From: Patescibacteria group bacterium
GTDB taxonomy: Bacteria > Patescibacteriota > UBA1384 > 2-12-FULL-50-11
Direction: 5' to 3'
Length of the DNA: 47,681 nucleotides
NCBI GenBank assembly: GCA_022843855.1
Contig: JALHMV010000004.1
Span: 1 to 47,681, forward strand
Under the pieces are notes generated by a model. It did not search any database, had not been told where the DNA came from, and worked only from the letters and a program-made list of their open reading frames with translations. The translations under genes were made by a program, and so were the position numbers. Positions 835-17,504 of this stretch are shown one piece after another (position 1 is the first letter of the stretch; every line of letters begins with the position of its first letter).

Positions 835-2922
835 ATGGCACGCGAATATCCGTTAGAAAGAGTTCGTAACTTTGGTATCATCGCTCACATTGACGCGGGT
901 AAAACCACCGTCTCCGAGCGTATTTTGTATTTTACGGGTAAGACCTACAAAATCGGTGAAGTGCACGAAGGCGCCGCGGTCATGGACTGGATGGAGCAAG
1001 AGCAGGAGCGTGGTATCACGATTACCGCTGCCGCTACTACCACCCACTGGAAGGATCACTCCTTCAACATTATCGATACTCCGGGACACATCGACTTTAC
1101 CGTCGAAGTGCAGCGCAGCTTGCGCGTGCTTGACGGTGCCGTTACCGTCTTTGACGGTGTGGCTGGCGTCGAAGCGCAATCCGAAACTGTCTGGCGCCAA
1201 GCCGACAAGTACCGCGTGCCGCGTATCTGTTTCGTCAACAAACTCGACCGCATCGGCGCTGATTTTAAACACGTTATTAAAACTATCCACGAACGTCTCG
1301 GCGCCAAAACCGCCATCCTCCAGCTGCCAATCGGTGCGGAAGATCAGCTCAAAGGCGTCGTTGACCTCCTCGAAAACAAAGCGCTCGTCTGGAATAAGGA
1401 CGAAGCGACCGAACCGACGACCGAAGACGTTCCGGCCGACATGAAGGCCGAAGTCGAAGAATACCGAGCCAAGCTGATCGAGCAGATCGCCGAAACCGAC
1501 GAAGCCTTGCTTGAAAAGTTCTTTAACGGCGAAGAATTGCCGGTTGAGGACCTCAAGAAGGCGCTTCGCAAAGCTGTTATCAACGTCGAACTCTTCCCAG
1601 TCATGGCTGGTTCAGCACTCAAGAACAAAGGCGTTCAGCCGCTCCTCGATGCTGTTGTTGCTTACTTGCCAAGCCCGCTCGACGTTCCGGCTGTCGAAGG
1701 TATTAATCCAAAGAACGAAGAAGAAAAGATTGTTCGCGAGACAAGTGACGACGAGCCGTTTACTGCCCTTGCTTTCAAAGTCGCAACCGACCCATTTGTT
1801 GGTTCGCTGACCTTCTTCCGCGTCTACGCTGGTAAGCTGGCTGCTGGTTCGTACGTCATGAACCCAGGTAAAGGCGAAAAAGAGCGCATCGGCCGCATCG
1901 TTCGCTTGCACGCTAATAGCCGTGAAGATGTGAAAGAAGTCTACGCTGGTGAGATCGCCGCTGCCGTTGGTCTCAAAAACACGACCACCGGTGACACGCT
2001 CTGCACCGAAGACAAGCCAGTATTACTCGAACAAATCTCGTTCCCCGAACCAGTTATTAAGATGTCGATCGAACCAAAAACTAAGGCCGATCAAGAAAAA
2101 ATGGGCGCCGCGCTCCAGCGTCTCGCCGCCGAAGACCCAACGCTGCGACTCTCAAAAGACGAGACGACCTCTCAGACCCTAATCGAAGGTATGGGCGAAC
2201 TTCACCTCGACATTATCGTCGACCGGATGAAGCGCGAGTTTGGGGTCGTTGCCGATAAGGGCGCACCGCAGGTTGCCTACAAAGAAACGATCAAGATTCC
2301 GGTCAAACAAGAAGCCAAGTACATCAAACAAACCGGTGGTCGCGGTCAGTACGGTCACGTTTGGCTCGAAATCGAACCGATCGAATCTGGCACTGGCTTT
2401 GAATTCGTCAACAAAATCGTTGGTGGTGCTATCCCGCGTGAATTTATCCCATCGGTCGAAAAGGGTGTCAAAGACGCACTAACCAAGGGTATTATCGCCG
2501 GCTATCCGATCGTTGACGTCAAAGTGACGCTTTACGATGGTTCGTACCACGATGTTGACTCTTCGGACGTCGCCTTCCAAATCGCGGGTGCGATGGCCTT
2601 CAAGGATGGTTGTAAAAAAGCCAATCCGGTCTTGCTCGAACCGATCATGAAAGTCGAAGTGGTTACTCCTGAAGAATTCTTCGGTAACTGCATGGGCGAC
2701 CTCAATAGCCGCCGCGGCCGTGTGATGGGCACCGAAGACCGCGGTAACTCCAAAGTTATCGACGCGCATGTACCGCTCTCAGAAATGTTTGGCTACATCA
2801 CCGATCTGCGTGGTATGAGCCAAGGTCGCGCCTCGTTCTCGATGGAATTTGACCACTACGAAGAAACACCGGGCAACATTACCGCTCAGATCGTCGGTAA
2901 GTCGGTTAAGGCAACCGACTAA
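835..2922 (+). CDS. fusA: Elongation factor G
   Basis: 695 aa with GTPase motifs [14 protein letters not shown] and NKLD, and full-length EF-G domain order. Canonical str-operon position. Confidence 0.98.
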
Positions 2923-2983
2923 CAACCGTTGTTCGCATACTGCTCACAATCGTCGGTAAGTCCGGCAAAGCTACCGACTAACA
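2884..2983 (+). repeat. Imperfect direct duplication of the last ~41 nt of fusA (copies at 2884-2924 and 2942-2983)
   Basis: Copy 1 is gctcagatcgtcggtaagtcggttaaggcaaccgactaaca. Copy 2 is gctcacaatcgtcggtaagtccggcaaagctaccgactaaca. Copy 2 would encode IVGKSGKATD*, against the real fusA end [10 protein letters not shown]. Confidence 0.8.
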
Positions 2984-2987
2984 CCCC

Positions 2988-3017
2988 TTGACCTCACACC
3001 GAGTCAACAGGTACAAT
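2988..3017 (+). promoter_or_regulatory. Candidate sigma70-type promoter for tuf
   Basis: TTGACC (2988-2993), an 18-nt spacer, then TACAAT (3012-3017), about 60 nt upstream of the tuf ATG. Pattern match only. Confidence 0.4.
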
Positions 3018-3078
3018 AAATCCGCTAATTGCGGTATACTACCGCTATATAAGAATAAAGAAAGGGTTTACTAGTTAA

Positions 3079-4260
3079 ATGGCAGCAACATTTGAACGAA
3101 CAAAACCGCATGTCAACGTTGGTACAATCGGCCACGTCGACCACGGTAAAACTACCCTGACAGCTGCGATCACCAACGTGCTCGCGGAAAAGGGTTGGGC
3201 CGAGAAGCGGGCCGTCGACCAGATCGACAACGCTCCAGAAGAAAAGCAGCGCGGTATTACTATCGCGACGTATCACGTTGAGTACGAGTCCGACAAGCGT
3301 CACTACGCTCACGTCGACTGCCCAGGACACGCTGACTACGTTAAGAACATGATCACCGGCGCCGCCCAGATGGACGCCGCCATTTTGGTCGTGTCCGCTC
3401 CAGATGGTCCAATGCCACAAACCCGCGAGCACATCTTGCTTGCCAAGCAGGTTGGCGTTCCGTACATCGTCGTCTTCATGAACAAGTGCGATCAGGTCTC
3501 TGACCCAGATCTCCTTGAGCTCGTTGAAGAAGAGATTCGTGACCTTCTGACCAAGAACGAATACCCAGGCAAAGACACCCCGATCATCAAGGGCTCGGCT
3601 CTTAAAGCGATCGAAGGTGACGCTGACGCCAAAAAGGCGATCTTCGACCTCGTCGAAGCGCTCGACACCTACGTTCCAGAACCAGTTCGTGAGACCGACA
3701 AGCCATTCTTGATGCCGGTCGAAGACGTTTTCTCGATCAAGGGTCGCGGTACGGTCGTAACCGGTCGTATCGAGCGCGGTCAGATCAAAGTCGGTGACGA
3801 AGTCGAAGTTGTTGGCCTCAAAGCCAGCGCCAAGACCACCATCACCGGTGTCGAAATGTTCCGCAAGCAGTTGAACGAAGGCCAGGCCGGCGACAACGTT
3901 GGTCTCCTTGTTCGCGGTCTTGAGCGAACCGACGTCGAACGCGGTCAGGTTATGTGTAAGCCAGGCTCGATCACCCCACACACCGAATTCGAAGCCGAGT
4001 GCTACATCCTTAAAAAAGAAGAAGGTGGCCGTCACACGCCGTTCACCAAGGGCTACAAGCCGCAGTTCTACTTCCGAACAACGGACGTAACTGGTGAAGT
4101 CGAGCTGCCAGATGGCGCCGAAATGGTTGTCCCAGGAGACACCACGACCTTCAAAGTCAAGCTGATCCAGCCGATCGCGATGGAAGAGAAGCTCCGCTTC
4201 GCCATCCGCGAAGGTGGTAAGACGGTCGGTGCCGGTATTGTGACAAAGATTATTAAGTAA
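3079..4260 (+). CDS. tuf: Elongation factor Tu
   Basis: 393 aa with [17 protein letters not shown] and NKCD motifs. Full-length EF-Tu. Confidence 0.98.
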
Positions 4261-4341
4261 ATGGTATCCTTGTCCCACTTCTCAACTATCGTTTCGAAGT
4301 CGTCACATAACTAACTAGAACTAGATTGAGAAAGCACCTTA

Positions 4342-4680
4342 ATGAGCAAAACACACAACGAAAAGCGCGCCGCCGCCAAGTCGAGCATCCGAATTAAGCT
4401 CAAAGCTTACGATTACCGGGTCATCGACCGCAGCGCCAAAAAGATCATCGAGACGGCTGAAAGAACCGGCGCGATTGTCGCCGGTCCGATCCCGCTGCCG
4501 ACGGAAAAAAATCTTGTCACCGTCAACCGATCGACCTTCGTCCACAAGGACGCACGCGAACAGTTCGAGATCCGCACCCACAAGCGCATCATCGACGTCT
4601 TGGACCCAAATCCAAAGACGCTTGATGCCCTAATGAACCTGGACCTTCCAGCAGGTGTAGACATCGAAATTAAAACGTAA
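4342..4680 (+). CDS. rpsJ: 30S ribosomal protein S10
   Basis: 112 aa. [39 protein letters not shown] is typical S10. Confidence 0.97.
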
Positions 4681-4749
4681 ACGTTTTACTTCTCGTTGCG
4701 AGGCAACTCGCAGTCAAAACCTAAGAGCTCAAAACAAGGTTTGCAAAAA

Positions 4750-4775
4750 GGCCGCTCACCAGAGCGGGCTTTTTG
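4750..4775 (+). terminator. Rho-independent terminator-like hairpin after rpsJ
   Basis: ccgctc-acca-gagcgg stem-loop followed by cttttt. It sits where rplC would normally follow rpsJ. Confidence 0.55.
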
Positions 4776-4824
4776 TTACCCGAATCTTTCCCGAACAGCT
4801 CGTCTGTAGTAAAATACCGTTAAC

Positions 4825-6315
4825 ATGGCAGCGGAAGCTAATCTTGAACAAAAACTTTGGGAGGCTGCTGATACATTGCGCGGAAATATTTCTTCATCTG
4901 AATACAAAGAGGTCGTTTTAGGCCTCATTTTTCTTAAATACATTTCCGATGCGTTCGAGAAGAAATATAATGAGCTGAAGCAGAGCCCGGTATCTGAGCC
5001 GGAAGATCGCGACGAATACACGATGGAAAATATCTACTGGGTGCCCAAACAGGCGCGCTGGTCCTTTATCCGTGATTACGCTAAACAGCCAGCAATCGGA
5101 ACCATTGTTGATAACGCCATGGAGGAGATCGAGAAAGATAATCCCGATCTTAAAGGGGTACTTTTCAAAAATTACGCACGTGAAAGTTTGGACAAACGCC
5201 GTCTCGGGGAGTTGATTGATATTATCTCCAGCATCGATATGTCGGGTCCGGACAAAGGAGATGTGCTGGGCCGCGTTTACGAATACTTTCTTGGTAAATT
5301 TGCCCATGCCGAAGGGCAACGCGGTGGTGAATTCTTTACGCCAAAATCAGTCGTGAAGCTGCTTGTCGAAATGGTCCAGCCGTTCAACGGCCGGGTGTAT
5401 GACCCGTGCTGTGGTAGTGGCGGCATGTTTATACAAAGTGAAAAATTTGTTCTCGACCATCAGGGCAGGATCGACGATATTCATGTCTTTGGCCAAGAGC
5501 TAAATACAACGACAATGCGGCTCGCCAAAATGAATCTGGCCATGCACCATATCGACGCCAAACTCGAGAACGGCGATACGCTCCATAATGATAAACACAA
5601 AGATTTAAAGGCAGATTTCATCCTTGCCAATCCACCGTTTAATGTCAGCGATTGGGGGGAAGAGCATTTGCGTAATGATCTCAGATGGAAGTACGGTATC
5701 CCACCGAAAGGTAACGCTAACTTTGCCTGGGTTCAGCATTTCATTCATCACTTAGCGCCGCGTGGTGTTGCTGGTTTTGTCTTGGCCAACGGTTCTATGG
5801 CCTCGCAAACATCCGGTGAAGGTGAAATTCGCAAGAATATTGTCGAAGCTGACTTAGTTGATTGTATTGTCAGCTTGCCGGATAAGTTATTCTTTAACGC
5901 GGCTATTCCTGCATGTCTGTGGTTCATTGCTCGCAATCGCGAAAACCGCAAAGGCAAGACACTGTTCGTCGACGCGCGCAATATGGGCACGATGATCAAT
6001 CGTCGGAACCGTGAACTGACTGATGCTGACATTCAGAAAATCTCCTATGCATACCACAGCTGGAAAGGTAGTAACGGTGGCGATTACAAGGATGTTCCTG
6101 GCTTTTGCAAGGTTGCCACAGTCAAAGAGATTGCCGAGCAAGACTATATCCTCACTCCTGGCCGCTACGTCGGCAGCGAAGAAATTGAAGAAGACGACGA
6201 GGCGTTCGAAAACAAAATAAAGAGGCTTACAGTAGAACTTTACAGTCAATTTGAGGAGAGCCGCAAGCTCGAATCAGAAATTAATGATAATTTGCGAAAG
6301 ATTAACTATGAGTAA
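4825..6315 (+). CDS. hsdM: Type I restriction-modification system, DNA methyltransferase subunit M
   Basis: 496 aa. HsdM N-terminal domain (LEQKLWEAADTLRGNISSSEYKEVVLGLIFLKYISD), AdoMet motif I (VYDPCCGSGGMF) and N6-adenine motif IV (NPPF). Confidence 0.93.
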   Translation: MAAEANLEQKLWEAADTLRGNISSSEYKEVVLGLIFLKYISDAFEKKYNELKQSPVSEPEDRDEYTMENIYWVPKQARWSFIRDYAKQPAIGTIVDNAMEEIEKDNPDLKGVLFKNYARESLDKRRLGELIDIISSIDMSGPDKGDVLGRVYEYFLGKFAHAEGQRGGEFFTPKSVVKLLVEMVQPFNGRVYDPCCGSGGMFIQSEKFVLDHQGRIDDIHVFGQELNTTTMRLAKMNLAMHHIDAKLENGDTLHNDKHKDLKADFILANPPFNVSDWGEEHLRNDLRWKYGIPPKGNANFAWVQHFIHHLAPRGVAGFVLANGSMASQTSGEGEIRKNIVEADLVDCIVSLPDKLFFNAAIPACLWFIARNRENRKGKTLFVDARNMGTMINRRNRELTDADIQKISYAYHSWKGSNGGDYKDVPGFCKVATVKEIAEQDYILTPGRYVGSEEIEEDDEAFENKIKRLTVELYSQFEESRKLESEINDNLRKINYE

Positions 6316-6838
6316 AAAGCGATTTACGACATACGCGTTTATAGACAGCCAGAACCTAAATCTGGGAACAAAAAAGGATATCTATAAGAATGGCAAGCGA
6401 ATATACAAAGGTTGGCAGTTGGATTTTAAGAAATTTCGACGCTATCTTTCAGATAAATTTAGGGTCGAGAAGGCTTTTCTCTTCATTGGATATATTAAGC
6501 AATACAGAAGCCTTTACCGGAGCCTTCGATCATACGGCTACGAGCTAGTCTTTAAGCCAACCGTCACAGATTCGGACGGTAAGCCAAAGGGTAATGTTGA
6601 CGCTGAGTTGGTACTGCACGCAGCGGCGATCGAGTACGGCAATTTCGATCAGGCGGTGATTGTTGCAGGTGACGGAGATTATAGGTGTTTATGTGAATTC
6701 TTGGTAACTAACAATAAGTTGCGAGCACTTGTTATTCCAAACTCCCTTTCCGAATCGGTATTACTGAAGGATTTTCAGAGATTCAAATTCTTTATTCAGT
6801 ACGAAAAAGATAAGTTGATTATGGAAACTCAGGGTTAA
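6308..6838 (+). CDS. NYN/LabA-like (PIN-fold) predicted ribonuclease embedded in the hsd operon
   Basis: 176 aa from ATG 6308, which overlaps the hsdM stop by 8 nt. Acidic motifs typical of NYN domains: AFIDSQN, GNVDAELV, VIVAGDGDY. Family call from motif memory, not a search. Confidence 0.72.
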   Translation: MSKKRFTTYAFIDSQNLNLGTKKDIYKNGKRIYKGWQLDFKKFRRYLSDKFRVEKAFLFIGYIKQYRSLYRSLRSYGYELVFKPTVTDSDGKPKGNVDAELVLHAAAIEYGNFDQAVIVAGDGDYRCLCEFLVTNNKLRALVIPNSLSESVLLKDFQRFKFFIQYEKDKLIMETQG

Positions 6839-6946
6839 AGGAAATGAGAGGCGTCACATATAACACGCAGTTATACGCTCGTTTCTCTCTCCTGATATCT
6901 AGATTTTCTCATTTTTCTCTACTTAGTCAACCTATTAAGGCTCCAA

Positions 6947-8104
6947 ATGACTAAAACTGTCTTGCTCGGAAATGTTGCAGAAATAAATGCAAATCAGGTA
7001 GGAAAAGGGTATCCATATGAAAAAATAAAATATATTGATGTGGCTTCAGTAAGTAGCGGTAAGGTCGAGAAGATAGATTTAGATTTAGCTAACGCTCCAA
7101 GCAGAGCAAGACGCATTGTACGCGACAATGATATTTTGATTTCTACGGTGCGGCCGAATTTGAAGCACTTCGCGTACATACCAGAAGCCGAGGAAAACTT
7201 GGTTGCCTCGACTGGCTTCGCCACAATTTCTGGCAGCCAAAATGTTGATCCAAAGTACCTCTACTACTATATGACCAGAGACGATATAACAAATTACCTT
7301 ACTTCAGTGGCCGAAGGCCAAGCTACTACATTTCCAGCCTTCCGACCTGAAATTTTACAGAATCTAAAAATTACCCTGCCTGAGCTTGAACAGCAAAAGA
7401 AGATTGGCAACTTTCTTTATTCTCTGGATAAAAAAATCGAACTCAACCAGCGGATGAATGAGACACTGGAAAAAATCGGCCAAACACTTTTTAAGCACTA
7501 CTTCATCGACAACCCCGACCGAAATAATTGGGGAAAACGGTCTTTGAACAGCTTCGGAGAGATAATATGTGGAAAGACACCGCCGAAAAATCGCGCCGAA
7601 TATTTTGGTGGAGTAATTCCCTTCATAAAAATTCCTGACATGCATGGGCAGGTTTTTATTACCGAAACGCAAGATAACCTGACAGAACCTGGTCGAGACT
7701 CTCAAAGAAATAAAACACTGCCCGCCAACACGATATGCGTAAGTTGTATTGCAACTGTCGGGCTAGTTTCGCTTACTTCACAGCCGTCGCAAACAAATCA
7801 GCAAATAAACTCAGTAACACCGACTGAAAAGGAGTACACCTATTATCTATACTTCATGCTCAAAAGCATTAAATCTCAATTGATTGACATGGCCAGCGGA
7901 GGTTCGGCAACGCCTAACTTGAATACTTCATCATTTTCTAAGATTTCTATCACCACTCCTGACAATAAAATTCTTCGTAAATTCGACCAGACTGTAAGAA
8001 TAATTTTCGAGAGGATTCTTAATAACCAAAATCAAAACAAACAGCTAGCCGAGCTTCGCGACTCACTTTTGCCGCGGTTAATTTCTGGGAAAATTCATGC
8101 TTAA
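6947..8104 (+). CDS. hsdS: Type I restriction-modification system, specificity subunit S
   Basis: 385 aa with two target-recognition halves separated by the conserved helical spacer (LPELEQQKKIGNFLYSLDKKIELNQRMNETLEKIGQTLFKHYF). C-terminal repeat of the same type (QLAELRDSLLPRLISGKI). Confidence 0.88.
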   Translation: MTKTVLLGNVAEINANQVGKGYPYEKIKYIDVASVSSGKVEKIDLDLANAPSRARRIVRDNDILISTVRPNLKHFAYIPEAEENLVASTGFATISGSQNVDPKYLYYYMTRDDITNYLTSVAEGQATTFPAFRPEILQNLKITLPELEQQKKIGNFLYSLDKKIELNQRMNETLEKIGQTLFKHYFIDNPDRNNWGKRSLNSFGEIICGKTPPKNRAEYFGGVIPFIKIPDMHGQVFITETQDNLTEPGRDSQRNKTLPANTICVSCIATVGLVSLTSQPSQTNQQINSVTPTEKEYTYYLYFMLKSIKSQLIDMASGGSATPNLNTSSFSKISITTPDNKILRKFDQTVRIIFERILNNQNQNKQLAELRDSLLPRLISGKIHA

Positions 8105-9470
8105 GACGGTAAAGATTTCGCAATATAAAGGTTTCTACGGTACTCAGACGATAGAATTTGCAGTACCAAATAATTCAAGTTTTGGTAGTGGATTAACACT
8201 TGTTGTGGGACCGAATAATACGGGCAAGACCACGGTGATAGAATCATTACTCATTACAGAATCTAAGAAATTCAAAGAAAGTGAGCGACATGGTAAAAAT
8301 GTGCCTAAAATTGTCATAGGAAACACGCAAGGTGGTGCGACGACCTACACCAATAATCGTGGCGGGTCATTAATAAGCTTTTCTGGGGCGCATCATGGGA
8401 TAAATTTTGAACTCATCCCTTCAAGGCGATACTGGCAGTATAAGTTTGGAGGACAACATAATTTTCAACAGTTGGTTAGCCAATCCATTGCAGGAGAGAC
8501 CAGAAATTCGAATGTCTTCGATTTGGGCCCGGTATTAAAAACCATACTTTCCGATAGTCGGATTTTGGAAAGGTTTAACTCACTAATGAAGAGGGTGATC
8601 CCGCACTTTACAAGCTGGACAATTGATACGGGCGATGATGGTAGCGACTACGTAAAATACAAAACAGCCAGCACCTACCATCAATCGAATTTGTTGGGTG
8701 ATGGCATCATCTCTCTGTTTAGGATAGTTGCCCACTTAATCCATGACCAGTCGACTACTTTTATTATTGACGAGCCAGAACTTTCGCTCCACCCCGCAGC
8801 ACAGAAAAGGCTCGCTGCGGTTTTGTCTGAACTCTCTAAAGATAGACAGATAATAATCTGTACTCACTCTCCTTATTTTATTAACTGGCATGATTTTGCT
8901 AATGGAGCAAAAGTGATACGGCTGAACAAGGACGCAGAGACCCCTTGTCGCGTTTACTCGCTGGACAACTCAAAAGACTACTCTCGCTTTATTTCAGGAA
9001 CGATAAATGAATATCAGAAACCTCAATTGCTAGACTTAGCAGCAAAGGAAATTCTATTTAGCGACAGAATATTTTTTACCGAGGGGCAGGAGGATGTTGG
9101 TTTAATTAAAAGGTGGATGGCAGATAACGATATAGCTCAACCATTCGAAATATTTGGCTATGGCGTGGGCGGAGAAAAAAATATGAAGCTCTTCTTGGAA
9201 ATGGCGAAAGATCTTGGAATTGCAAAAGTAGCGGCATTATATGACTCAAATTCAACAAATTATAGCTCCGATCAGAGTAGTTATCCCGACTTCTTATTAA
9301 AAAAGCTTTCGACCGAAGACATTCGGGACAAAGTAAATAGGTGCATACGAAGTTGCCCATACGGGAAAGATAGAAACGGCACTTTTCTTTCAAATGGGAG
9401 AATCAAAACAACGGAAAAATCTAATTTCCAAGCTTTAATGAATGAAATAGTAACGCACTTATCGACTTAA
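8097..9470 (+). CDS. ABC-type ATPase fused to a Toprim/DUF4435-like C-terminal domain (OLD-family-like), embedded between hsdS and hsdR
   Basis: 457 aa. Walker [10 protein letters not shown] (aa 38-46), signature-like LLGDGIISL, Walker [13 protein letters not shown] (aa 222-233), H-loop ICTHSP. C-terminal [16 protein letters not shown] (Toprim-like Glu, aa 329) and AALYDSNS (degenerate DxD). Overlaps the hsdS stop by 8 nt and ends 1 nt before the hsdR ATG. Confidence 0.72.
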
Positions 9471-9471
9471 A

Positions 9472-12400
9472 ATGACTGAAGAAAAAATCGAAAAAGAGGC
9501 ATTGAAAATTTTAGAACGGCTTGGCTGGCAGATTTTGAGCGGGCCGGAAATCGGACCGGAAGGGTCGAGTGAGCGAAAGTACGACGAAGTAATTTTGACA
9601 CGGCGTCTTAGCGAAGCGATTGCGCAGTTAAACCCACGACTTCCAGCATCCACGATCGACGAAGTCGTCAAAAAAGTTAGTCGTCATGATCATCCGGAAA
9701 TGCTGCTGGACAATCACCAATTTCACCAGCAATTAACCGATGGTGTGAGTGTTGAATATAGGGCATCAAATGCCGAAGTTCGGACTGAGCAGGCGAGGGT
9801 TTTTGATTTTGAGAATCCTGAAAACAATGAATTCGTAGCAGTTAATCAGTTCACGGTTATTAATGGCGATTATCACCGTCGACCGGACATTGTTCTGTTT
9901 GTAAGCGGTTTACCATTGGGAATCATTGAAATTAAAGACCCGACTGATGAAAGAGCAACATTAGAAAGTGCATATAACCAACTGCAGACATACGAAGCGG
10001 AAATTCAGCCGTTATTTCGATTCAACGCACTGGAAATAATTACCGACGGCATTGATGCGGAGGTTGGAACAATCAGTGCAACCTATGAACGCTTTAATGC
10101 TTGGAAAAGCATTGATGGCAAAAAAGATCACTCAGGCGTACCTATGCTGAAAGTATTGCTGCGTGGTGTTTGTGACAAAGCGCGATTTTTAGAAATAGTT
10201 CGTAGCTTTATTGTTTTTGAAAAAGATAAAAAACACGGATTTATTAAAAAGCTGGCTGGCTATCACCAATACTGGGCAGTGCAAAAAGCGCTTGACTCTA
10301 CCGTGAAATCAATTCGACCGGGCAGTGATCATCGCGTGGGAGTTATTTGGCATACGCAAGGATCCGGTAAGTCGCTGTCCATGGTTTTTTATGCAGGCAA
10401 GTTGGTCGCTAATCCAGAACTCAGAAATCCAACGGTAATTGTGGTGACAGATCGAAACGATTTAGATAACCAGTTATTTGATACATTCTCGAACTGTCCT
10501 GAGTTGTTGCGTCAAATGCCGGTACAGGCAGAAAGTCGTGACCATTTACAGGAAATACTCAAAGTTCAGTCGGGCGGAATTATTTTCACAACCAATGCAA
10601 AATTCTTTCCAGAAAACGGCAAAGAATTTCCGCTATTAAGTGATCGAGAAAACATTATTGTGATTGCTGACGAAGCCCATCGCAGTCAGTACAACTTTAT
10701 TGACGGCTTCGCCAAACACATTCGCGATGCCTTGCCCAATGCTAGCTTTATTGGTTTTACGGGTACGCCAATTGAGGCCGATGATCGTTCAACACCAGCA
10801 GTGTTTGGTGACTACTTAGATGTTTATGACATCGAGCAGGCCGTTAAGGACGGGGCGACTGTTCCAATTTATTACGAAAGTCGTCTTGTTGAGCTGGATA
10901 TCAACAAAGATATGCGAGCCCGTATAGATAATGAAGTTGCCGAAGTAATCGGTGAGGAAGAGTTAGATCGTCAAGAAGAACTGAAGGCAAAATGGGCGCA
11001 AGTTGAGGCGGTGGTTGGCAACTCAAAACGAATTGAACGAATTGCTAGCGATATAGTTGAGCACTTTGATAATCGCCTTAGTGCAATCGACGGTAAGGGC
11101 ATGATTGTGACGATGAGTCGACGGATAGCAGTTGATTTATATAGCGCCATTGTCTCCCTGAAACCGGAGTGGGTAGGGGAAAGCGACAAGGAGGGTTTCC
11201 TAAAAGTGATAATGACTGGCTCAGCAACCGATCCGGTTGATTGGCAACAGCATATTCGTTCAAAAGAACGGCGCAGAGAGTTGGCGGATCATTTCAAGGA
11301 GCCAAGCTCACCGTTTAAGCTGGTGATCGTGTGCGATATGTGGTTGACAGGTTTTGATGCGCCAAGTTTACATACTATGTATCTAGATAAGCCGCTAAAA
11401 GGCCATAACTTAATGCAAGCTATTGCGCGAATTAACCGTGTGTATACGGATAAGCCCGGCGGTGTAGTTGTTGACTATCTGGGCGTCGCCGCAGCTTTGC
11501 GTGAAGCATTGCAGGACTACACGGTAAGTGGTGGCAAAGGCCGACCAACGCTCGATCAGCGCGAAGCTGTGGCGGTGATGATGGAAAAAATCGAGCAACT
11601 TCGCGATATGTTTCACGATTTCCCATATCGAAAGTACTTTACGGCTGATACTAAACGGCAGTTGCAGGTCTTGTTGGATGCTCAGGAATACGTCCTCTTG
11701 CAAGAAGAAGGGGAGAAGCGCTTGAAGCAGTATGTTCTAGAGCTTTCGAAGGCATTTGCATTAGCCGTTCCAAATGCGCAGGCACTGGCGACTCGCGAAG
11801 AGGTGGCATTCTTCCAGGCGGTGAGAGCGAGGCTTTCTAAGATTGTAGAAAAGGGGAAGAGCGATCAGGACTTTGGGGCGGCAATCAAACAGATCGTTGA
11901 TAAAGCCATCGCCCCGGCTGGTGTGGTGGATATCTTCGAAGCCGCGGGAATTGATAAACCAGATATTTCTATACTGTCTGACGAATTCCTGGCTGAGATT
12001 AGAGGTATGGAGCGCAAAAATTTAGCGGTTGAGGCATTGCGTAAGCTGCTGGACGGAGAGATCAAGGCAAAATTCTCCAAAAATGCAGTAAAGCTTGGTT
12101 CGTTTGCCGAGATGTTGGAGAAGGCCTTGTTGCGTTATAAAAACAATGCGATTGAAGCCGCGCAAGTCATTGAAGAATTGATAGAAATCGCCAACACTAT
12201 TCGATCTTCGGAAGAAGAAGGTGAAAAACTTGGTCTGTCGCCTGATGAGATTGCATTTTACGATGCATTGGCACAGAACGACAGTGCTCGTGCGGTGATG
12301 GGTGATGACAAATTGCGTGACTTGGCACGATTGTTGGTGAAAAGGGTTCGAGAGAATATTACTGTTGATTGGTCAGTACGAGAAGCAGCTCGCGCTCGTC

Positions 12401-12528
12401 TTAAAGTTATGGTCAAAAGACTACTACGAGAATACGGTTATCCGCCAGATCAAGAAAAAATAGCAACTGAGCTTGTGCTTGTGCAGGCTAGTTTGTTTGG
12501 CGACGAATGGAGTAGTCGTGACCGCTAA
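9472..12528 (+). CDS. hsdR: Type I restriction enzyme, endonuclease/translocase subunit R
   Basis: 1018 aa. N-terminal PD-(D/E)xK nuclease ([21 protein letters not shown]). SF2 motor motifs HTQGSGKS (I), [10 protein letters not shown] (II, DEAH) and FTGTP (III). C-terminal helical domain of the kind seen in HsdR ([10 protein letters not shown]...[10 protein letters not shown]). Confidence 0.93.
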
Positions 12529-12784
12529 ACAATTTCAAAATTTACTTAAGAAAAAGCATCAAGCAATAATAGGGGCGCAGTTTTGTTTTTTGATTGCGTT
12601 TGCGGTAGTGATCGGTAATCAGCACAACGCTTTAACAGCGCGGGATAGAAAAGCGCAACAAGTGCAGCAGAGTCTCCATGATATTAGTCAGTGGCATCGA
12701 GCTGAGTATGGGGCGCGCTACGAAGCGGTCGCTCACTCGCTTCTTTTGTTGGATGCGTACGAACAGGGTGGTGTGGAAAAATGA
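12518..12784 (+). CDS. Small single-pass membrane protein, paralog 1 (shorter copy)
   Basis: About 88 aa from GTG 12518; TTG 12497 is an alternative start. The start lies inside the last codons of hsd[33 protein letters not shown]...[15 protein letters not shown] aligns with the 13208 ORF. Start is uncertain. Confidence 0.5.
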
Positions 12785-12797
12785 CAAGAAGTATCTG

Positions 12798-13211
12798 ATG
12801 TCTAAACCGTTTCGCTCTGATAATGCACAAATCAGAAAGACTACAGAAGAGATCCATGGTCACCTTCATCTTGTTCTGAATGACATTGCCCATACTTGCC
12901 CAGACGGTGGCCTCCAGGAGTGTATAGACGGTCAGTTGATCGAATATATTCAACGCCGGAAGGGCTGGCACCCGATTGGAGAAAACGGTTTTTCCTACAA
13001 AAATGGGATCAAAGTTGTTGTTGATTCTTATCGATTTTCAAACGCTTTCGAAACGGTATTGAATATCGGGAAAGAGCTGCTGCGCGCTGAACTTGAGGGC
13101 TTGATTAAAGAATCGGCCAACAAAGGTGATGAAATACGGCGTGCGCTAAAAGAATTCGAGAGTAAAGATTGGACCGCCGCATTTGTTCGGAGGATTGTAA
13201 GTGAAAAATGA
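12798..13211 (+). CDS. Hypothetical soluble protein (137 aa)
   Basis: ATG 12798 lies 13 nt after the paralog-1 stop, and the stop overlaps the next ATG (ATGA at 13208). No recognisable motifs. The C-terminal half is predicted helical. Confidence 0.5.
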   Translation: MSKPFRSDNAQIRKTTEEIHGHLHLVLNDIAHTCPDGGLQECIDGQLIEYIQRRKGWHPIGENGFSYKNGIKVVVDSYRFSNAFETVLNIGKELLRAELEGLIKESANKGDEIRRALKEFESKDWTAAFVRRIVSEK

Positions 13212-13609
13212 TCAAACGCCTAACCGCTCGACAACTCCGGGTACTTGTCAAACAAAAGCACCGCGCCATTATCGGCGCTCAACTGGGGTTACTCCTTATA
13301 TTTGCTATTTTTATCTCGATGCAATACCGCTCGTTGGAACAACTACAGGGCAAGGTTGCTGACTATCAACAGAGTCTCGGACAGATCAGCACTATGCATC
13401 GAGCGCAATGGCGGGCCAGTACCGATGCGACTTTTCATGCGCTTGGGATGCCGGACGCCTATCTCGAAGGCGTCGAAAAGGTCGATGAGGTCTACGAGGC
13501 GGTGATGGCTGCATCTGAAGAAGCCGTCCGGCAGAAAGATCTTATTATTGAAGAGCTAAAAAAATACGGCATCGTGCCGCCGCCTGAGGAACCGACACCG
13601 GCGACCTAA
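13208..13609 (+). CDS. Small single-pass membrane protein, paralog 2 (longer copy, 133 aa)
   Basis: TARQLRVLVKQKHRAIIGAQLGLLLIFAIFIS...QQSLGQISTMHRAQW...AYLEGVEKV aligns with 12518-12784. It has an extra ~45-aa C-terminal tail ending in a Pro-rich stretch. Confidence 0.6.
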   Translation: MIKRLTARQLRVLVKQKHRAIIGAQLGLLLIFAIFISMQYRSLEQLQGKVADYQQSLGQISTMHRAQWRASTDATFHALGMPDAYLEGVEKVDEVYEAVMAASEEAVRQKDLIIEELKKYGIVPPPEEPTPAT

Positions 13610-13653
13610 TTGATTTCCGTGCATTTTGGGTTGTTGCGACTTATGATGATGCT

Positions 13654-14490
13654 ATGAACCAACTCATTACGAACATTCAATGGAAAAAGGTCGGGATCGG
13701 CGCTTTTTGGGCAGTGACAATTTTAGGCTACTTCTCGCTCGTCGCAGTTGTTATGGTGTATTTTTCACCAATCCTGGACGAGCAACTAACGAATCCAGTT
13801 ACTGGTGAAGCATGTCGAGGTGATGCCACGGTAGTCAACATCCCCATCAGCGGCTCACTGTATACCTATCATTTCGAAGAAGGCGACACCGCCTCGTTGG
13901 ATATTACACAGTTGATCCGTCGGGCAAACGATTCGCCAAATATTAGCGCCATTGTCCTTGAGATTGACTCTCCCGGAGGCGATCCAACCGCTGGCGAAGA
14001 AATCGCGGCGGCGGTTGCTGCATCTGAGAAACCGGTGTATGCCCTTGCGCGGGGTTACGCCACATCAGCTGCTTACTGGGCTGGTCTGACCTCGAAAGCG
14101 TTCTATGCGCATTCAACTTCCTTAGTGGGAAGTATTGGTATAACCGCGTCGTACGTGGATGCTGCCGAAAAGAATAAACGGGATGGCTTAACGTACAACC
14201 AATTGTCGACGGGGAAGTTTAAGGATTTATTTGATCCCAACAAGCCGCTCACTAAAGATGAGCGAACTCATATTGAGACGGAGTTAAACAAGTTTAAGGA
14301 ACTATTTGTTGACCAAGTCGCAACATTGCGCAAATTGCCGCGAGAAGAAGTGGTCGCTTTAGCGGACGGCTCCGCGTTGTTGGGTGGAGACGCTAAGACC
14401 AAGAAGTTGATCGATGAAGTCGGAACGATGACGGACGTTAAGAAGCGAATTGAGGCAGACACCGGTACGCCAGCCCTTCTTTGCTGGTAA
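13654..14490 (+). CDS. sppA: Signal peptide peptidase SppA-like serine protease (peptidase family S49), membrane anchored
   Basis: 278 aa with an N-terminal TM (VGIGAFWAVTILGYFSLVAVVMVYF). S49 motifs: LEIDSPGGDPTAGEEIAAAV, ARGYATSAAYWAGL (nucleophile Ser region), SLVGSIGI. Confidence 0.75.
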   Translation: MNQLITNIQWKKVGIGAFWAVTILGYFSLVAVVMVYFSPILDEQLTNPVTGEACRGDATVVNIPISGSLYTYHFEEGDTASLDITQLIRRANDSPNISAIVLEIDSPGGDPTAGEEIAAAVAASEKPVYALARGYATSAAYWAGLTSKAFYAHSTSLVGSIGITASYVDAAEKNKRDGLTYNQLSTGKFKDLFDPNKPLTKDERTHIETELNKFKELFVDQVATLRKLPREEVVALADGSALLGGDAKTKKLIDEVGTMTDVKKRIEADTGTPALLCW

Positions 14491-14521: not shown

Positions 14522-14550
14522 AAAAGGCCGGGTCCATAGAGGACCCGGCC
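14522..14550. terminator. Strong hairpin between convergent genes; the T-run is on the minus strand
   Basis: Perfect 10-bp stem ggccgggtcc / ggacccggcc with a 5-nt loop. Preceded by aaaa on the plus strand, which reads as tttt after the stem on the minus strand. Confidence 0.6.
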
Positions 14551-14567: not shown

Positions 14568-15065
14568 CTAGTTTGGGTTTGCCAGGAAGTCGCGAAGCTC
14601 CTGGCGGGCTTTGGTTTCGGCATCGAGCTGGTTGACGGCCTCCTTCGCCGTTGTCAGCGCGGTGTCGATCGCGGTGTCGGGACCGATTGCGTCGTAGGCT
14701 TTCTCAAGCACTTCGACGCTCAGTTCTTGGACGTTGAGCGATTGGCACATCGCTGCCAATGTCAGTCGTTCGTCTTGGAGTTTATCTAGCTCGCTCGCGA
14801 CGATTTCCATTTGGGCAGCGATAGCTTCGAGAGCTGTCGCGTACGAACGGTGAACTTCAGCGACTGCCTCAAGCTCACTTTTTGCTTGATTGGCCAAGTC
14901 TGGATCGGGGTAGGTGGACTTCTGCGTCCAGTCGTCAACGATCAGCTTGGCGTCAGCGGTCAGCTCTTCCAACACACCCGCGGCCAGGTAGGCGTTGCGA
15001 ATATGCTGGATTCGTGGCTGGACCTTGCCGAGCCACTCATGGAAGATCGCATCGCCGTTTGGCAT
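14568..15065 (-). CDS. Hypothetical all-helical protein (165 aa), third gene of a minus-strand operon
   Basis: The ATG shares 1 nt with the upstream gene's TGA (TGATG at 15063-15067). Acidic, coiled-coil-like sequence (ELEAVAEVHRSYATALEAIAAQMEIVASELDKLQDERL). No known motif. Confidence 0.6.
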   Translation of the reverse strand: MPNGDAIFHEWLGKVQPRIQHIRNAYLAAGVLEELTADAKLIVDDWTQKSTYPDPDLANQAKSELEAVAEVHRSYATALEAIAAQMEIVASELDKLQDERLTLAAMCQSLNVQELSVEVLEKAYDAIGPDTAIDTALTTAKEAVNQLDAETKARQELRDFLANPN

Positions 15066-15916
15066 CAGACAACTCCCATTTGCTTGACTTCGGCCGGCGA
15101 CATTTCTTTACCGACGTAGACGACGCAATCGGAGCCTTCTTCGGCCCACATTGCGACCATCCGGCGACCGGTGAAGCTCTTGTCACCACTGACAAAGTCG
15201 GCTCGCATGTCGTAGTACGACACCGGTCGACCGACCGTGGTGAGGAGCGTCGGAACGTCGTCGGCAAACTCGCCCAATTCCGAAAGCACCGAAGTGCATT
15301 CGATCGTGCTTTGGCCGGGATTGCGACCGCCCTCGTTAAGGCCGTAGGCGCCGTTGATCTCCCATTGGCAACCACGAAACTCGCGAATCGCCTGATCGGG
15401 AGTGTCGTCTCCGGCTTTGACGTCGTCGAGAAGCTCCTTGCGCTCTTTGAGGAGCAGGTTGGCTTCGCTACTGGTAATGGGCAGTTCCGTTAAAAGGAAC
15501 CATTTCTTCGGCGTTTTCATGATGAGCATGTCGCCGGAGAGCCAGATGAACTGAGTGATCGCTACGCCTTGCGGCGTATAGATATTAGCTAGCGCCGTGG
15601 TGACGACGGTCCGATTGGCTTTCCAGGATTTGGATCCCGGAGCGTAGTTCGGTACGTCGCTGATGACTTGACCAGCTCGGGCTTCGTCGACGGTGATAGC
15701 TTCAACGATATCATCGCTGGGGTTGGTGTCGGGTTCTTCGCGATGAATCACCCGGCCGTTAGCCCGTAGTTGGGGTTCTTGGGCAGCGACTTTCTTAACG
15801 TATCCGAACCACGGGCCAATATGATTTGGCCAGAGGTCGGTCACGATCCAAAAGACGCCGGCGCCGATGACGATCAGGTACACAATGACCTGAAGAACGT
15901 GAAAGAGTGTCCACAT
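15065..15916 (-). CDS. Hypothetical membrane-anchored protein (283 aa), possibly DUF4178-like
   Basis: N-terminal TM (VLQVIVYLIVIGAGVFWIV). The body has two beta-rich segments (ITQFIWLSGDMLIMKTPKKWFLL; GRRMVAMWAEEGSDCVVYVGKEM) reminiscent of DUF4178. This is a tentative call. Starts 6 nt after the upstream stop. Confidence 0.6.
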   Translation of the reverse strand: MWTLFHVLQVIVYLIVIGAGVFWIVTDLWPNHIGPWFGYVKKVAAQEPQLRANGRVIHREEPDTNPSDDIVEAITVDEARAGQVISDVPNYAPGSKSWKANRTVVTTALANIYTPQGVAITQFIWLSGDMLIMKTPKKWFLLTELPITSSEANLLLKERKELLDDVKAGDDTPDQAIREFRGCQWEINGAYGLNEGGRNPGQSTIECTSVLSELGEFADDVPTLLTTVGRPVSYYDMRADFVSGDKSFTGRRMVAMWAEEGSDCVVYVGKEMSPAEVKQMGVV

Positions 15917-15922
15917 AGTTGA

Positions 15923-17347
15923 TTAGTCTCCTCCGCCGAACGAACCAGATCCCGGTCCGCCGAATGATCCGCCCATGCCTCCGCCTGAGCTTCCACCACC
16001 GTAACCGCTCCCGAAGCCGCCTCCGCTTGAGCCGCCATACCCGCCGTAGCTGCCGCCAGAAGAACTGGAGCCGCTATCGTAGGATGTTGTCGGTGGGGGT
16101 GGGGTGTAGGTGTCAACCTCATCGTAGGCTTGGTTAGCCAGACTAGTTGCCGTTTGATAGTGAGTGACCGCCAAGACGGGGTCACTGGCTTCATATTGCC
16201 GGGCCGAATCGCGATGCCGACGAGCACTTGCCAGAGTTGCCTCGGCGGTGTCTTGGTCGTTTCGATCTTCCCAGTCGTCAATATGCTCAGCAGCGCGGCT
16301 GATGGCCGAGTTGGCATCGATACGCTCTGATCGCATGACGGCGACAGCATTACGGACGCGAACGTCGAAGTTGTGCACCGACTTGATGTAGTTCTGGATC
16401 TTGGTGAGCTCGCCTCGAACGCTGCGCAAAAGCACATCAGCCCTGGCAAACTCTTGGGTATCCATACTATTGAGTCGGTTGATCTCGCCCAATGTTTGTT
16501 CGAGATTCGCCAATGACCGCTGATGCGTTGTAAGCCCGGCAGTGAAGCCTTTGCGGTTGTAGGCGCTATAGCGTTCAATCCGCACGGCAGCGTTGTACGC
16601 ATCGGTAAACGAATTACGAAGCGTGCCGAGCGTGTTGCCGGCGTTGCCTGAGAGCTCATTGACGGTCTGACGCAGCTTGGGAGCGCGATCAGCCAGTTCT
16701 AACGATTGTGTGGCGACGCTTTTGGCCTCTTCGCCAATGGCGAAGATCCGGACGTAATCTGGACGATTGTCCCGAGGGTCAATCGCGTTCATGAGCCGGG
16801 CCACTTTCGCTTCGGTTTCGTTGAGCTGGCCAATTACCATGCGAGCGTCACCGAAGTGACGATCGAAGTAGCCGTTGGCAATATGCCCGGCGATCCGGTT
16901 GGTCGTTGCCTGGCTGTAGGCGTTGATTTGGCTGACGACGTTGGGGTAGGCCTCGAGGGCCGTGTCCAAGTCGGTTAGCCCAGCAGTCAAAGCCTTCATA
17001 TCGCGCTGAACTTCAGCGAGGATGTAGCTGGCCTGACCGGTTGCCACTGCCACGGGTTTTGGGTTGGGACCGTCGGCGGCCTTCAGCTTGCTTGTCGCTT
17101 GTTCGAGCGCGGTGATGAGGTCGTTGACCGACAAGTTGTCTGTGTACTTCGGATGCGTTTGTTTCGCAGCCGTGACACGGGCAAGAATGTCGGTCCGTAA
17201 TTCGTTGGTTGTCTTGGTGATAGCTGCCTGAACCGTATCGCGTTGGCGATAGATCTTTCCCGCTTCGTAGTCCTTACCGAACCCGAAGACGAGAGAGAGG
17301 GCAAACAGTCCCAAGATCCATTGCGGAATCGTTGAGCGATTGTTCAT
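15923..17347 (-). CDS. Hypothetical N-terminally anchored long helical protein with a Gly/Ser-rich C-terminal tail (474 aa)
   Basis: Preferred start is ATG 17347 (MNNRSTIPQWILGLFALSLVFGF = TM), preceded by aggaaac. About 400 aa of helical/coiled-coil sequence, then PPPPTTSYDSGSSSSGGSYGGYGGSSGGGFGSGYGGGSSGGGMGGSFGGPGSGSFGGGD. Confidence 0.62.
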   Translation of the reverse strand: MNNRSTIPQWILGLFALSLVFGFGKDYEAGKIYRQRDTVQAAITKTTNELRTDILARVTAAKQTHPKYTDNLSVNDLITALEQATSKLKAADGPNPKPVAVATGQASYILAEVQRDMKALTAGLTDLDTALEAYPNVVSQINAYSQATTNRIAGHIANGYFDRHFGDARMVIGQLNETEAKVARLMNAIDPRDNRPDYVRIFAIGEEAKSVATQSLELADRAPKLRQTVNELSGNAGNTLGTLRNSFTDAYNAAVRIERYSAYNRKGFTAGLTTHQRSLANLEQTLGEINRLNSMDTQEFARADVLLRSVRGELTKIQNYIKSVHNFDVRVRNAVAVMRSERIDANSAISRAAEHIDDWEDRNDQDTAEATLASARRHRDSARQYEASDPVLAVTHYQTATSLANQAYDEVDTYTPPPPTTSYDSGSSSSGGSYGGYGGSSGGGFGSGYGGGSSGGGMGGSFGGPGSGSFGGGD

Positions 17348-17471
17348 AAACTGTTTCCTGTAAGTAAACGTGCGGTGACGGCGCAGTCGCCGCACAGTGC
17401 AGGCGGAATAATAGCAGTTTTCAGGTTAGGAGTCGATGGGTTTGAGGCATATTTTTACTGACCAGTAGAGT

Positions 17472-17504
17472 AAGAGAAAGGCCGAGTCCATATTGAACCC
17501 GGCC
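17472..17504 (-). terminator. Terminator-like hairpin downstream of metK
   Basis: Minus strand reads ggccgggt-tcaatatgg-actcggcc (one mismatch) followed by tttctctt. Confidence 0.45.

Follow-up and report, generated by a model that had tools for sequence, protein, structure and literature searches.

The four genes that directly follow hsdR in the stretch of DNA analysed here (47,681 nucleotides, the window) are, in the reading that we favour with some caution, a one-off mosaic of three independent units standing side by side as co-transcribed cargo of a genomic island. The first of these units would be a horizontally mobile type I restriction-modification (R-M) cassette, ending at about position 12514. 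The second would be a lineage-restricted pair made up of B, an orphan protein of the cytoplasm, and C, a type-II membrane protein, with A as an old, truncated extra copy of the latter, and the third would be D, an SppA-type S49 protease with one N-terminal helix as its anchor and its catalytic domain turned outward. From comparison of the sequences, A to D do not form a conserved four-part system, because homology of the cassette ends at 12514, the S49 relatives of D are found without A, B or C, and B recurs with A/C-type proteins but without an S49 protease.

All four genes lie on the plus strand, as does hsdR itself (9472-12528; Pfam HSDR_N, SWI2_SNF2 and T1RH-like_C), which provides the context of the tail and is not counted as part of it. 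The first-pass annotation had placed the four genes directly behind hsdR, and each was found where it had been placed. Gene A (12518-12784) encodes a predicted 88-aa single-pass, N-in membrane protein that is a truncated paralogue of C. Two starts overlapping the end of hsdR had been offered for it, of which GTG 12518 is the better: a GGAG motif is found five nucleotides before it, and no ribosome-binding site of this kind precedes TTG 12497. With this start, A overlaps hsdR (stop at 12528) by 11 nt. The product of gene B (12798-13211) is soluble, has 137 aa, the length first proposed, and belongs to an orphan family that is very rare; the start is taken to be ATG 12798 since the N-terminal MSKP is conserved in B homologues, and the 177-aa reading frame from 12678 is an over-extension. 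The start of C (13208-13609; 133 aa, single-pass, predicted N-in/C-out) overlaps the stop of B by 4 nt (ATGA at 13208), and a gap of 44 nt separates C from D (13654-14490), a 278-aa membrane-anchored S49 serine peptidase of the SppA 36K type that is predicted to face outward. Both junctions are as originally described. By hydropathy and flank charges, A, C and D each have a single hydrophobic span near the N-terminus, preceded by a basic flank, from which an N-in/C-out topology is predicted, and B has none.

Scanning the interval from hsdR to D revealed no convincing terminator or promoter. The only strong hairpin, at 14526-14550 (no strand assigned), lies after D, between this gene and a convergent minus-strand operon; it has a 10-bp GC stem, with the T-run on the minus strand, and appears to be the only credible stop for a transcript running from hsdR to D. 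A near-copy of this hairpin is located at 17480-17504. The four genes are real by these sequence features and are probably co-expressed with hsdR.

The cassette itself has the gene order hsdM-NYN-hsdS-OLD-hsdR, a type I R-M system in which hsdR is the last gene. Orthologues of hsdR with 81% protein identity are present at other genomic sites in two other genera (genomes G005 and G009), and blastn against the hsd operons of these genomes gives about 72% at the DNA level, covering hsdM and hsdR and ending at 12510-12514. The type I R-M cassette is horizontally mobile and ends at about 12514; because its homology ends there, the sequence evidence places A to D outside it. In G005 and G009, where A to D are absent, the orthologous hsdR is followed by either a 136-aa protein with DUF6994 and Bro-N or a 315-aa protein with RadA, and these unrelated genes overlap the hsdR stop as well. 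The tail thereby resembles the passenger genes of type I systems (PrrC-type anticodon nucleases, OLD, NYN, RhuM, Fic and a YgjP-like peptidase), which are likewise tightly packed with hsd, often with overlapping stops and starts, and which vary between orthologous cassettes; the operon in the window carries two of them, NYN and OLD, and what stands in the slot behind hsdR differs among G005, G009 and the locus L024. Unlike such passengers, however, A to D fall beyond the cassette homology, A, C and D are predicted to act at or outside the membrane rather than on nucleic acid, and none of the four matches a known defence family.

The locus lies in a hypervariable island between rpsJ and rplC in a Saccharibacteria genome of about 0.86 Mb. 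Comparing two versions of this island, G011 and L004, we observed that the flanks are 93-97% identical and that cassettes have been swapped on both sides of a PDDEXK_1-B pair; the slot after B holds an S1 protease in G011 and a 149-aa A/C-type protein in L004, as alternative cassettes. If the tail is a mosaic, A to D would be transcribed by read-through from the hsd operon, as the overlapping or close starts and the lack of a terminator before 14526 suggest, and their co-expression with restriction would be a by-product of the site at which the cassette landed. It would follow that the slot behind hsdR and the rpsJ-rplC junction of Saccharibacteria gather unrelated cargo that is co-expressed with restriction, which helps annotation and cautions against inferring function from tight packing. 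The same packing also argues against a mosaic: overlaps of 11 nt and 4 nt, a single strand and no internal terminator have the look of a functional operon, and such tight coupling counts against pure accident.

The identity of D as a peptidase is well supported by its sequence. It matches Pfam PF01343 (Peptidase_S49) with 114.5 bits (cut-off 24.9, E=5.7e-33) and TIGR00706, the SppA equivalog model, with 144.0 bits; as the latter score is below the cut-off of 155.45, orthology to SppA is not established. In an alignment with the SppA proteins of B. subtilis and E. coli (3RST, 3BF0), Ser138 (in ATSAAYW) and Lys190 (in GKFKD) of D fall on the catalytic Ser and Lys positions, and both are invariant in 13 members of its clade; the catalytic dyad is thus intact. 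The transmembrane span is predicted at residues 17-35, flanked by charges of +2 (N side) and -3 (C side), and a pair of cysteines conserved in the clade, Cys54 and Cys277, is consistent with the predicted extracytoplasmic domain. On this basis we assign D to the S49 family (MEROPS clan SK), SppA 36K type, and the earlier call of a membrane-anchored S49 protease holds. By likeness to SppA of B. subtilis, D would cut membrane-embedded or membrane-proximal peptides at the outer face.

Three other roles for D were rejected. The phage prohead proteases (S49, lambda C type) and the NfeD proteins of NfeD/stomatin pairs have the ClpP-fold serine peptidase in common with D, and there is a strong match to the head-maturation protease family phrog_53 (E=1.3e-41). 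D, however, carries a membrane anchor, with no portal, capsid or terminase gene nearby and no phage structural genes in the window. The match to NfeD1b_N is weak (31.3 bits, cut-off 40), and D is without an SPFH/stomatin partner among its neighbours. Control of HsdR by D was discarded in view of the outward orientation of the protease domain.

D belongs to a short-form Patescibacterial clade of S49 proteases, and it is accessory. Of the 162 genomes of the class, 18 carry S49; the 144 that lack it include both genomes of the same genus and all 18 other genomes of the family. The closest relatives of D are P0005 and P0006 (about 50% identity over the full length) and P0008 (63% over 64% of the length). 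All three lie in the rpsJ-rplC island, upstream of rplC and directly behind a PDDEXK_1 (Cas4-like) nuclease, without A, B or C, and in L024 and L025 no remnant of B or C is present in the 640 nt that separate PDDEXK_1 from S49. Searching 77 related S49 loci with profiles of A/C and B (hmmsearch) gave no match, so the co-occurrence of these families with S49 peptidases for which a survey had been suggested is not seen there, nor did we find any enrichment of small single-pass membrane proteins next to S49 genes.

These data bear on the idea, raised in the first-pass annotation, of an unrelated SppA operon that merely sits beside the R-M genes. In its plainest version, an ordinary housekeeping SppA operon with two small membrane helpers would have ended up by chance next to inserted R-M genes. 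D is indeed closest to SppA models and structures, many of its homologues are labelled 'signal peptide peptidase SppA' or 'protease-4' in their sources, and the neighbours of some S49 genes are housekeeping genes (YchF, a tRNA synthetase, PGK and TIM). We nevertheless regard this version as very improbable: the gene is missing from most genomes of the class and from those of the same genus and family, D scores below the equivalog cut-off, no homologue of A/C or B lies near any of the 77 other S49 loci, and the region differs between near-identical genomes. The original idea does not fit fully: D is not a housekeeping SppA here, and its clade turns up beside restriction or defence genes above the chance expectation. 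Homologues standing as ordinary SppA neighbours without R-M context are found at many S49 loci, but not among the closest ones.

Of about 11 genomes that carry hsdR, 3-5 have a gene of the short S49 clade within about 5-7 kb of type I genes, compared with about 0.3 expected under random placement (50 genomes tested); our own Poisson estimate for this excess is P about 0.003. In L098 an hsdR that is 53% identical to the one in the window is followed by a 137-nt gap and then S49, and in L024 the order is hsdR, YgjP, PDDEXK_1, S49. Other restriction or defence genes are found in the same position, with a methyltransferase (MTase) and MvaI/BcnI (type II R-M) preceding S49 in L067, and MTases and GmrSD_N/HEPN preceding it in L079 by a gap of 12 nt; in L092, L114, L117 and L088 type I genes are within about 5 kb. 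The tallies of S49 neighbours contain many HNH, GmrSD, MTase, Fic, RhuM, YgjP and AAA_15 genes. R-M genes are absent within 7 kb of the majority of S49 loci, and long-form S49 genes show no association with restriction among the class genomes checked. An S1 protease unrelated to S49 is also found near type I hsdR (L169, L170 and G011). The association of the short clade with restriction genes looks non-random, and we found no paper on a clade of SppA-type proteases that, in ultra-small bacteria, behaves as mobile cargo of islands next to restriction systems.

Such an association would be expected if S49 and its small partners were an envelope-level effector of defence or exclusion that works, and is co-regulated, with type I R-M, possibly by destroying membrane-inserting proteins of phages or competitors while restriction handles the DNA. 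The apparent translational or transcriptional coupling of A to D with hsdR, the position of short-form S49 directly or a short way behind genes for restriction or defence across independent lineages, the excess of type I neighbours and the presence of a second, unrelated protease at the same kind of site all point this way. The co-location would, however, arise just as well if S49 and restriction genes were both accessory cargo restricted to a small number of variable hot spots, and most S49 loci are without R-M genes. Moreover, the orthologous hsd cassettes work without A to D, a protease domain outside the cell cannot act on HsdR or DNA, PADLOC-DB v2 contains no family for A, B, C or D, and the long-form proteases do not share the association. 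We therefore consider this explanation distinctly unlikely. An envelope-level module co-transcribed with R-M had been proposed before; the overlap and the missing terminator make co-transcription plausible, but the tail is neither a conserved module nor part of the cassette.

A and C are true paralogues, as first proposed, with 42-46% identity (E=1e-18 in a six-frame search). A is without the last ~45 residues of C, and the frame beyond its stop has a similarity to the C tail too weak to call as decay. A also matches the 149-aa partner of B in L004 (E=2e-7), with which it has the motif LDAYEQGG in common, and C is collinear with the same L004 gene, so placed behind B. From these sequences A is best read as an old, truncated extra copy of C. 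A matched no family in the libraries searched, C likewise has no Pfam or NCBIfam family, and homologue searches with C found nothing outside the window. An AlphaFold2 model of C (pLDDT 75) has a long helix and a return helix, with the ectodomain predicted to be an acidic helical hairpin, and fold search in the PDB gave generic coiled-coil matches, none of them significant; profile searches against PDB sequences were likewise negative.

B is exceptionally rare: among 1.8 billion representatives it has two close and four distant homologues, its profile matches only G000 and G011 among the 162 genomes of the class, and a metagenome scan with the B alignment gave no match (the wider alignment has no usable conserved stretch). 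Its AlphaFold2 model (pLDDT 81.5) is an alpha/beta fold with no match in PDB or BFVD, where sequence searches, including a profile search against PDB sequences, also gave none, and fold searches recognised no DNA-binding or enzymatic fold. Conserved features of B are a GF-Y-NG hairpin and a DW motif.

The neighbours of the B family suggest that the second and third units may be less independent than the mosaic would have it. In three of six contexts the family adjoins a membrane serine protease: S49 is two genes downstream of B in the window, a 417-aa multi-TM HtrA/MarP-like S1 protease is directly behind B in G011, and in L027 an S1 protease 73% identical to that of G011 precedes, at a distance of 7 nt, a B homologue with only about 32% identity to B of the window. 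The order of B and the S1 protease is opposite in G011 and L027. Small genes for helix-turn-helix (HTH) proteins follow B homologues in L027 (sigma70 region 4) and L031 (XRE), the sigma70_r4 mini-gene of L027 recurs behind the S1 protease in L169, and a small membrane ORF precedes the B homologues in L028-30. The association of the rare B family with membrane serine proteases looks non-random.

One explanation is that B, a small membrane partner (A or C) and an outward-facing serine protease anchored in the membrane together make up a true accessory module that does not depend on hsd. In one variant, DegS/RseA-like regulated proteolysis, the protease would cut the single-pass ectodomain and free or alter cytoplasmic B, with a small HTH output in some versions; in another, a toxin/antitoxin-like pair would be held in check by proteolysis. 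Three adjacencies in so rare a family, the swap of S1 protease and A/C-type protein in an identical slot, and the recurring HTH genes and membrane ORFs speak for such a module. On the other hand, ten contigs carry PDDEXK_1, B and a 149-aa A/C-family protein without a protease, two B homologues adjoin serine recombinases with no protease in view, and neither the 77 S49 loci nor eight further S1 protease loci have a B-like neighbour. There are only about six independent contexts, every one of them in an island prone to recombination, where adjacency comes cheaply, and the fold of B is not recognisably that of a DNA-binding protein or an enzyme. We judge a module of this kind to be unlikely, and retain the mosaic as our preferred reading. 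Still, S49 near type I genes, type II R-M and GmrSD/HEPN, together with B near proteases, hints at a functional link that the mosaic leaves unexplained.

The likeness to DegS/RseA or MarP signalling is in the arrangement of a membrane-anchored extracytoplasmic serine protease beside an N-in/C-out single-pass protein and a cytoplasmic partner; the proteases next to B in G011 and L027 are HtrA/DegS/MarP-like, with a sigma70 region-4 mini-protein near in L027 and L169. No sigma factor or anti-sigma domain was detected in B or A/C, however, and D is of clan SK (S49), not the PA clan; the likeness is architectural only.

A further parallel is B. subtilis SppA with SppI. SppI is a multi-pass RDD-domain protein, and SppA is presumably about 60 residues longer than D. 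B. subtilis SppA (PDB 3RST, 4KWB) shares with D the single N-terminal anchor, the outward S49 domain and the Ser/Lys dyad, and differs from it in that D has the conserved Cys pair, a TIGR00706 score below cut-off and the standing of an accessory island gene. SppI (YteJ) is an inhibitor that binds to SppA, and together they confer protection against lantibiotics and cationic peptides (PMC7568657). In both cases a small membrane protein is encoded beside the protease, but A and C show no Pfam or NCBIfam family by which they would be SppI/YteJ homologues, they lie upstream of the protease and not downstream, and other members of the S49 clade are without such a partner. By analogy, D may be regulated by the tethered ectodomains of A and C or may have them as substrates, and the cytoplasmic tail of C, which is basic, may be a docking site for B.

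A broader and quite doubtful hypothesis is that outward-facing membrane serine proteases, short S49 and interchangeably a MarP/HtrA-like S1 family of Patescibacteria, are mobile envelope immunity or exclusion factors at the tails of cassettes for restriction and other kinds of defence, with B and A/C as an adaptor or sensor pair that controls the protease. If this were true, A-B-C-D would be the most complete example so far of a new kind of accessory system based on a protease. Either the S49 island clade or the orphan-fold protein B near membrane proteases could mark a layer of defence, or of interaction with the host, at the envelope of organisms that live attached to other cells.

Horizontally acquired DNA has been estimated at up to 13% of genome length in Patescibacteria (PMC12455944). 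In the window, with an average GC content of 0.50, the hsd genes have values of 0.40-0.46, and those of A, B, C and D are 0.46, 0.44, 0.52 and 0.50, respectively.

Between the end of rpsJ at 4680 and the start of rplC at 24540, the window (contig C4 of a 0.86-Mb genome in 39 contigs) carries an accessory island of about 20 kb. Its first hsd gene is hsdM (4825-6315), followed in order by an NYN gene, hsdS, an OLD-type ATPase/Toprim gene and hsdR (9472-12528). Directly after hsdR come four genes, which we call A, B, C and D; a GC-rich (0.57) three-gene block follows on the minus strand (14568-17395), and metK, a heliorhodopsin gene and others make up the remainder. On either side of this block lies a 25-nt GC hairpin (14526-14550 and 17480-17504). 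The two are nearly identical, have similar T-rich tails and are both on the minus strand; they resemble a terminator that has been duplicated, or else the boundaries of an inserted segment.

The first-pass annotation had described the four genes as a membrane/protease module starting inside the hsdR stop region, and examination of the reading frames bore out the gene structure. A (88 aa) does begin within the end of hsdR, most likely at the GTG at 12518, which has a GGAG 5 nt upstream; from this start, the overlap is 11 nt. B (12798-13211, 137 aa) starts at the ATG at 12798, with the MSKP N-terminus common to its homologues; the gene-caller version (P0001, 177 aa) is over-extended. The start of C (13208-13609, 133 aa) overlaps the B stop as ATGA, and 44 nt separate C from D (13654-14490, 278 aa). 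A and C are indeed paralogous (42-46% identity, E=1e-18), A being without the last ~45 residues of C. By hydropathy and flanking charges, A, C and D are each predicted to cross the membrane once (N-in/C-out), and B has no predicted span. Consensus scans turned up neither a credible promoter nor a credible terminator from hsdR to D, and the hairpin at 14526-14550 is the sole strong one; from the gene layout we infer that A to D are co-transcribed with hsdR.

Judged by sequence comparison, the four genes do not belong to the hsd cassette. Orthologous hsdR genes (81% identity) are present in G005 and G009, which represent two other genera of the family; neither lies at the rpsJ-rplC junction. DNA similarity to these operons extends over hsdM, a core part of hsdS, and hsdR, ending at 12510-12514, just short of the start of A. 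What follows hsdR differs: in G005 a 315-aa gene and radA, in G009 a 136-aa gene (with an ATGA overlap with the hsdR stop), a DUF6994 gene and a Bro-N gene. Varying genes thus occupy the slot behind hsdR, each abutting or overlapping the hsdR stop. The GC content, 0.40-0.46 for the hsd genes, A and B and 0.50-0.52 for C and D, like the whole window, agrees with this placement outside the cassette. In two unrelated type I operons a DUF6994 gene comes directly after hsdR, at 8713-9866 in L065 (the G009 locus, where the 136-aa gene stands between the two) and at 3405-4118 in L170.

The assignment of D to the S49 peptidases was confirmed (PF01343, E=5.7e-33). Ser138 and Lys190, invariant across its clade, fall on the catalytic dyad positions in an alignment with solved SppA structures. 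On TIGR00706 (SppA) D reaches 144 bits, below the cut-off of 155, and it matches a phage head-protease PHROG at E=1.3e-41; we argue that it is of SppA type and not a phage head protease, because it has a membrane anchor and phage genes are absent. In alignment A4 of this short S49 clade, one cysteine is conserved just past the membrane span (C54 in D, GCNV in others) and a second in a C-terminal CW motif (C277 in D), a pair that may form a disulfide marking an extracytoplasmic domain.

The closest relatives of D (P0005 and P0006, ~50% identity; P0008, 63% over two thirds) are located upstream of rplC in the islands of related genomes, directly 3' of a Cas4-like PDDEXK_1 nuclease gene and without A, B or C. 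Across species-representative genomes, 79 loci of the clade were recovered, mostly in Patescibacteria, and hmmsearch with A/C and B profiles found no homologue at the 77 examined; small single-pass membrane proteins are no commoner next to the S49 gene than a few genes away. The clade is accessory: of 162 genomes of the class, 18 carry it, and the other genomes of the family lack it. In two loci the 5' end of the PDDEXK_1 gene is present a second time as a short copy: in L026 at 3-122, followed by an inserted NYN cassette and the full gene at 1000-1695, and in L050 (G004) at 2097-2177, upstream of an inserted cassette, with the full gene at 4789-5478. This arrangement suggests cassette insertion with target duplication at the start of the gene.

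B and A/C are orphan families: A, B and C gave nothing above noise against Pfam, NCBIfam, PHROGs and PADLOC, and B has two close and four distant relatives among 1.8 billion representatives. The AlphaFold model of B is confident (pLDDT 81.5; five helices surrounding a three-stranded sheet) and resembles no PDB or BFVD structure significantly, nor does a B profile match PDB sequences; the model of C, a single long helix (membrane span and stalk) plus a return helix, matches generic coiled coils only. Ten metagenome contigs carry PDDEXK_1, B and a gene for a 149-aa protein in that order. The latter belongs to the A/C family, with a shared architecture, E=2e-7 against A, an identical LDAYEQGG motif and an alignment collinear with the whole of C. 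What is actually conserved is therefore the pair of B and an A/C-type membrane protein, and this pair occurs without a protease.

L004 and the G011 locus (L003), from two genomes, are 93-97% identical in DNA over rpsJ, PDDEXK_1-B and the genes beyond, and differ completely in two slots. The defence slot directly after rpsJ holds a type I R-M system and an AAA_13 ATPase in G011 (1624-9109), and PhdYeFM, Shedu (SduA_C), EcoO109I R-M and a LexA-like gene in L004 (1765-7237). In the second slot, behind B, G011 has a 417-aa multi-TM HtrA/MarP-like S1 protease (10419-11756) and L004 the 149-aa A/C-type protein (8381-8927), with one breakpoint inside the 3' end of B (last ~7 codons). The island is thus a cassette-swapping site, and the slot after rpsJ a defence hot spot within the S10 ribosomal-protein operon.

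Taken as a single module, the four genes do not hold together: S49 relatives lack A, B and C, B with A/C recurs without the protease, and the four are not a conserved unit. As a set they are found in this genome only, and they are best regarded as cargo placed side by side; the module as originally proposed is largely an accident of position. Transcription from the hsd promoter probably runs on through A, B, C and D as far as the hairpin at 14526, giving one long transcript. D would sit in the membrane with its ClpP-fold domain outside, and would degrade membrane-embedded or membrane-proximal peptides as does Bacillus subtilis SppA, whose activity protects against lantibiotics and cationic peptides and is restrained by the co-encoded membrane protein SppI (PMC7568657). 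C and its truncated copy A would present an acidic helical hairpin on that same outer side of the membrane, obvious candidates for a tethered regulator or substrate. The only part of C within reach of B would be its basic 19-residue cytoplasmic tail; such contacts are drawn by analogy, not from evidence. D adds a member to the S49/SppA family and belongs to a clade whose mobile, island-associated lifestyle is unusual.

The S49 clade is repeatedly found next to restriction or defence genes. The S49 gene follows hsdM, hsdS and hsdR (53% identical to that of the window) in L098; a different type I system (hsdR 31% identical), a YgjP-like gene and PDDEXK_1 in L024; a MTase and MvaI/BcnI in L067; and, after 12 nt, two MTases and GmrSD_N/HEPN in L079. 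Type I genes lie within about 5 kb of it in L092, L114, L117 and L088. HSDR_N matches occur in 13 of 50 S49-bearing genomes, and hsdR falls inside the ±7-kb S49 locus three times (five counting hsdM just inside) vs ~0.3 expected from random placement computed from genome sizes; our own Poisson estimate gives P about 0.003. This proximity is probably not due to chance. Pfam tallies of two genes each side at 63 loci revealed no conserved partner. Many neighbours are of island type (HNH, HTH_3, GmrSD_N, N6_N4_Mtase, Fic, RhuM, YgjP, Eco57I, AAA_15, an integrase), and housekeeping genes are also among them. The distribution fits cargo of variable or defence islands, and does not demonstrate a mechanistic link to restriction. 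Patescibacteria genomes are described as having many islands, one with a complete type I system (PMC12455944); our literature search found no paper on an S49-restriction association.

B-family genes adjoin membrane serine proteases in three of ~6 independent contexts, which is probably not chance: the S49 gene D in the window, the S1 protease directly after B in G011, and, in L027, a protease sharing 73% identity with that of G011 (E=5e-99), with a distant B homologue (~32% identical to B of the window) 7 nt downstream, followed by a 66-aa sigma70-region-4 gene. Eight further loci of the S1 protease have no B-like gene. Other B homologues adjoin large serine recombinases, a TraG-like ATPase or an XRE regulator, neighbours that mark mobile elements. 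The protease-in-defence-island pattern and the B-protease adjacency merit a systematic test.

The S1 MarP/HtrA-like membrane protease (L169, L170, L171-L174) has a ~130-aa C-terminal extra domain. A type I hsdR with a Cas4-like or DUF6994 gene is found in three of its contexts, and an ArdC-like gene in four. In L169 and L170 it comes after type I hsdR together with a DUF2779/Cas4-like or DUF6994 gene, and a 68-aa sigma70 region-4 gene lies directly 3' of it in L169; in L171 it is upstream of an ArdC-N/zincin anti-restriction-like gene, with same-sized neighbours in L172-L174. Just upstream of the distant B homologue P0125, L028 and L030 contain an uncalled ORF of ~88 aa (~190-460, frame with MANCYICGRP...) with two CxxC pairs and a C-terminal hydrophobic tail, a small membrane protein adjoining a B-family gene.
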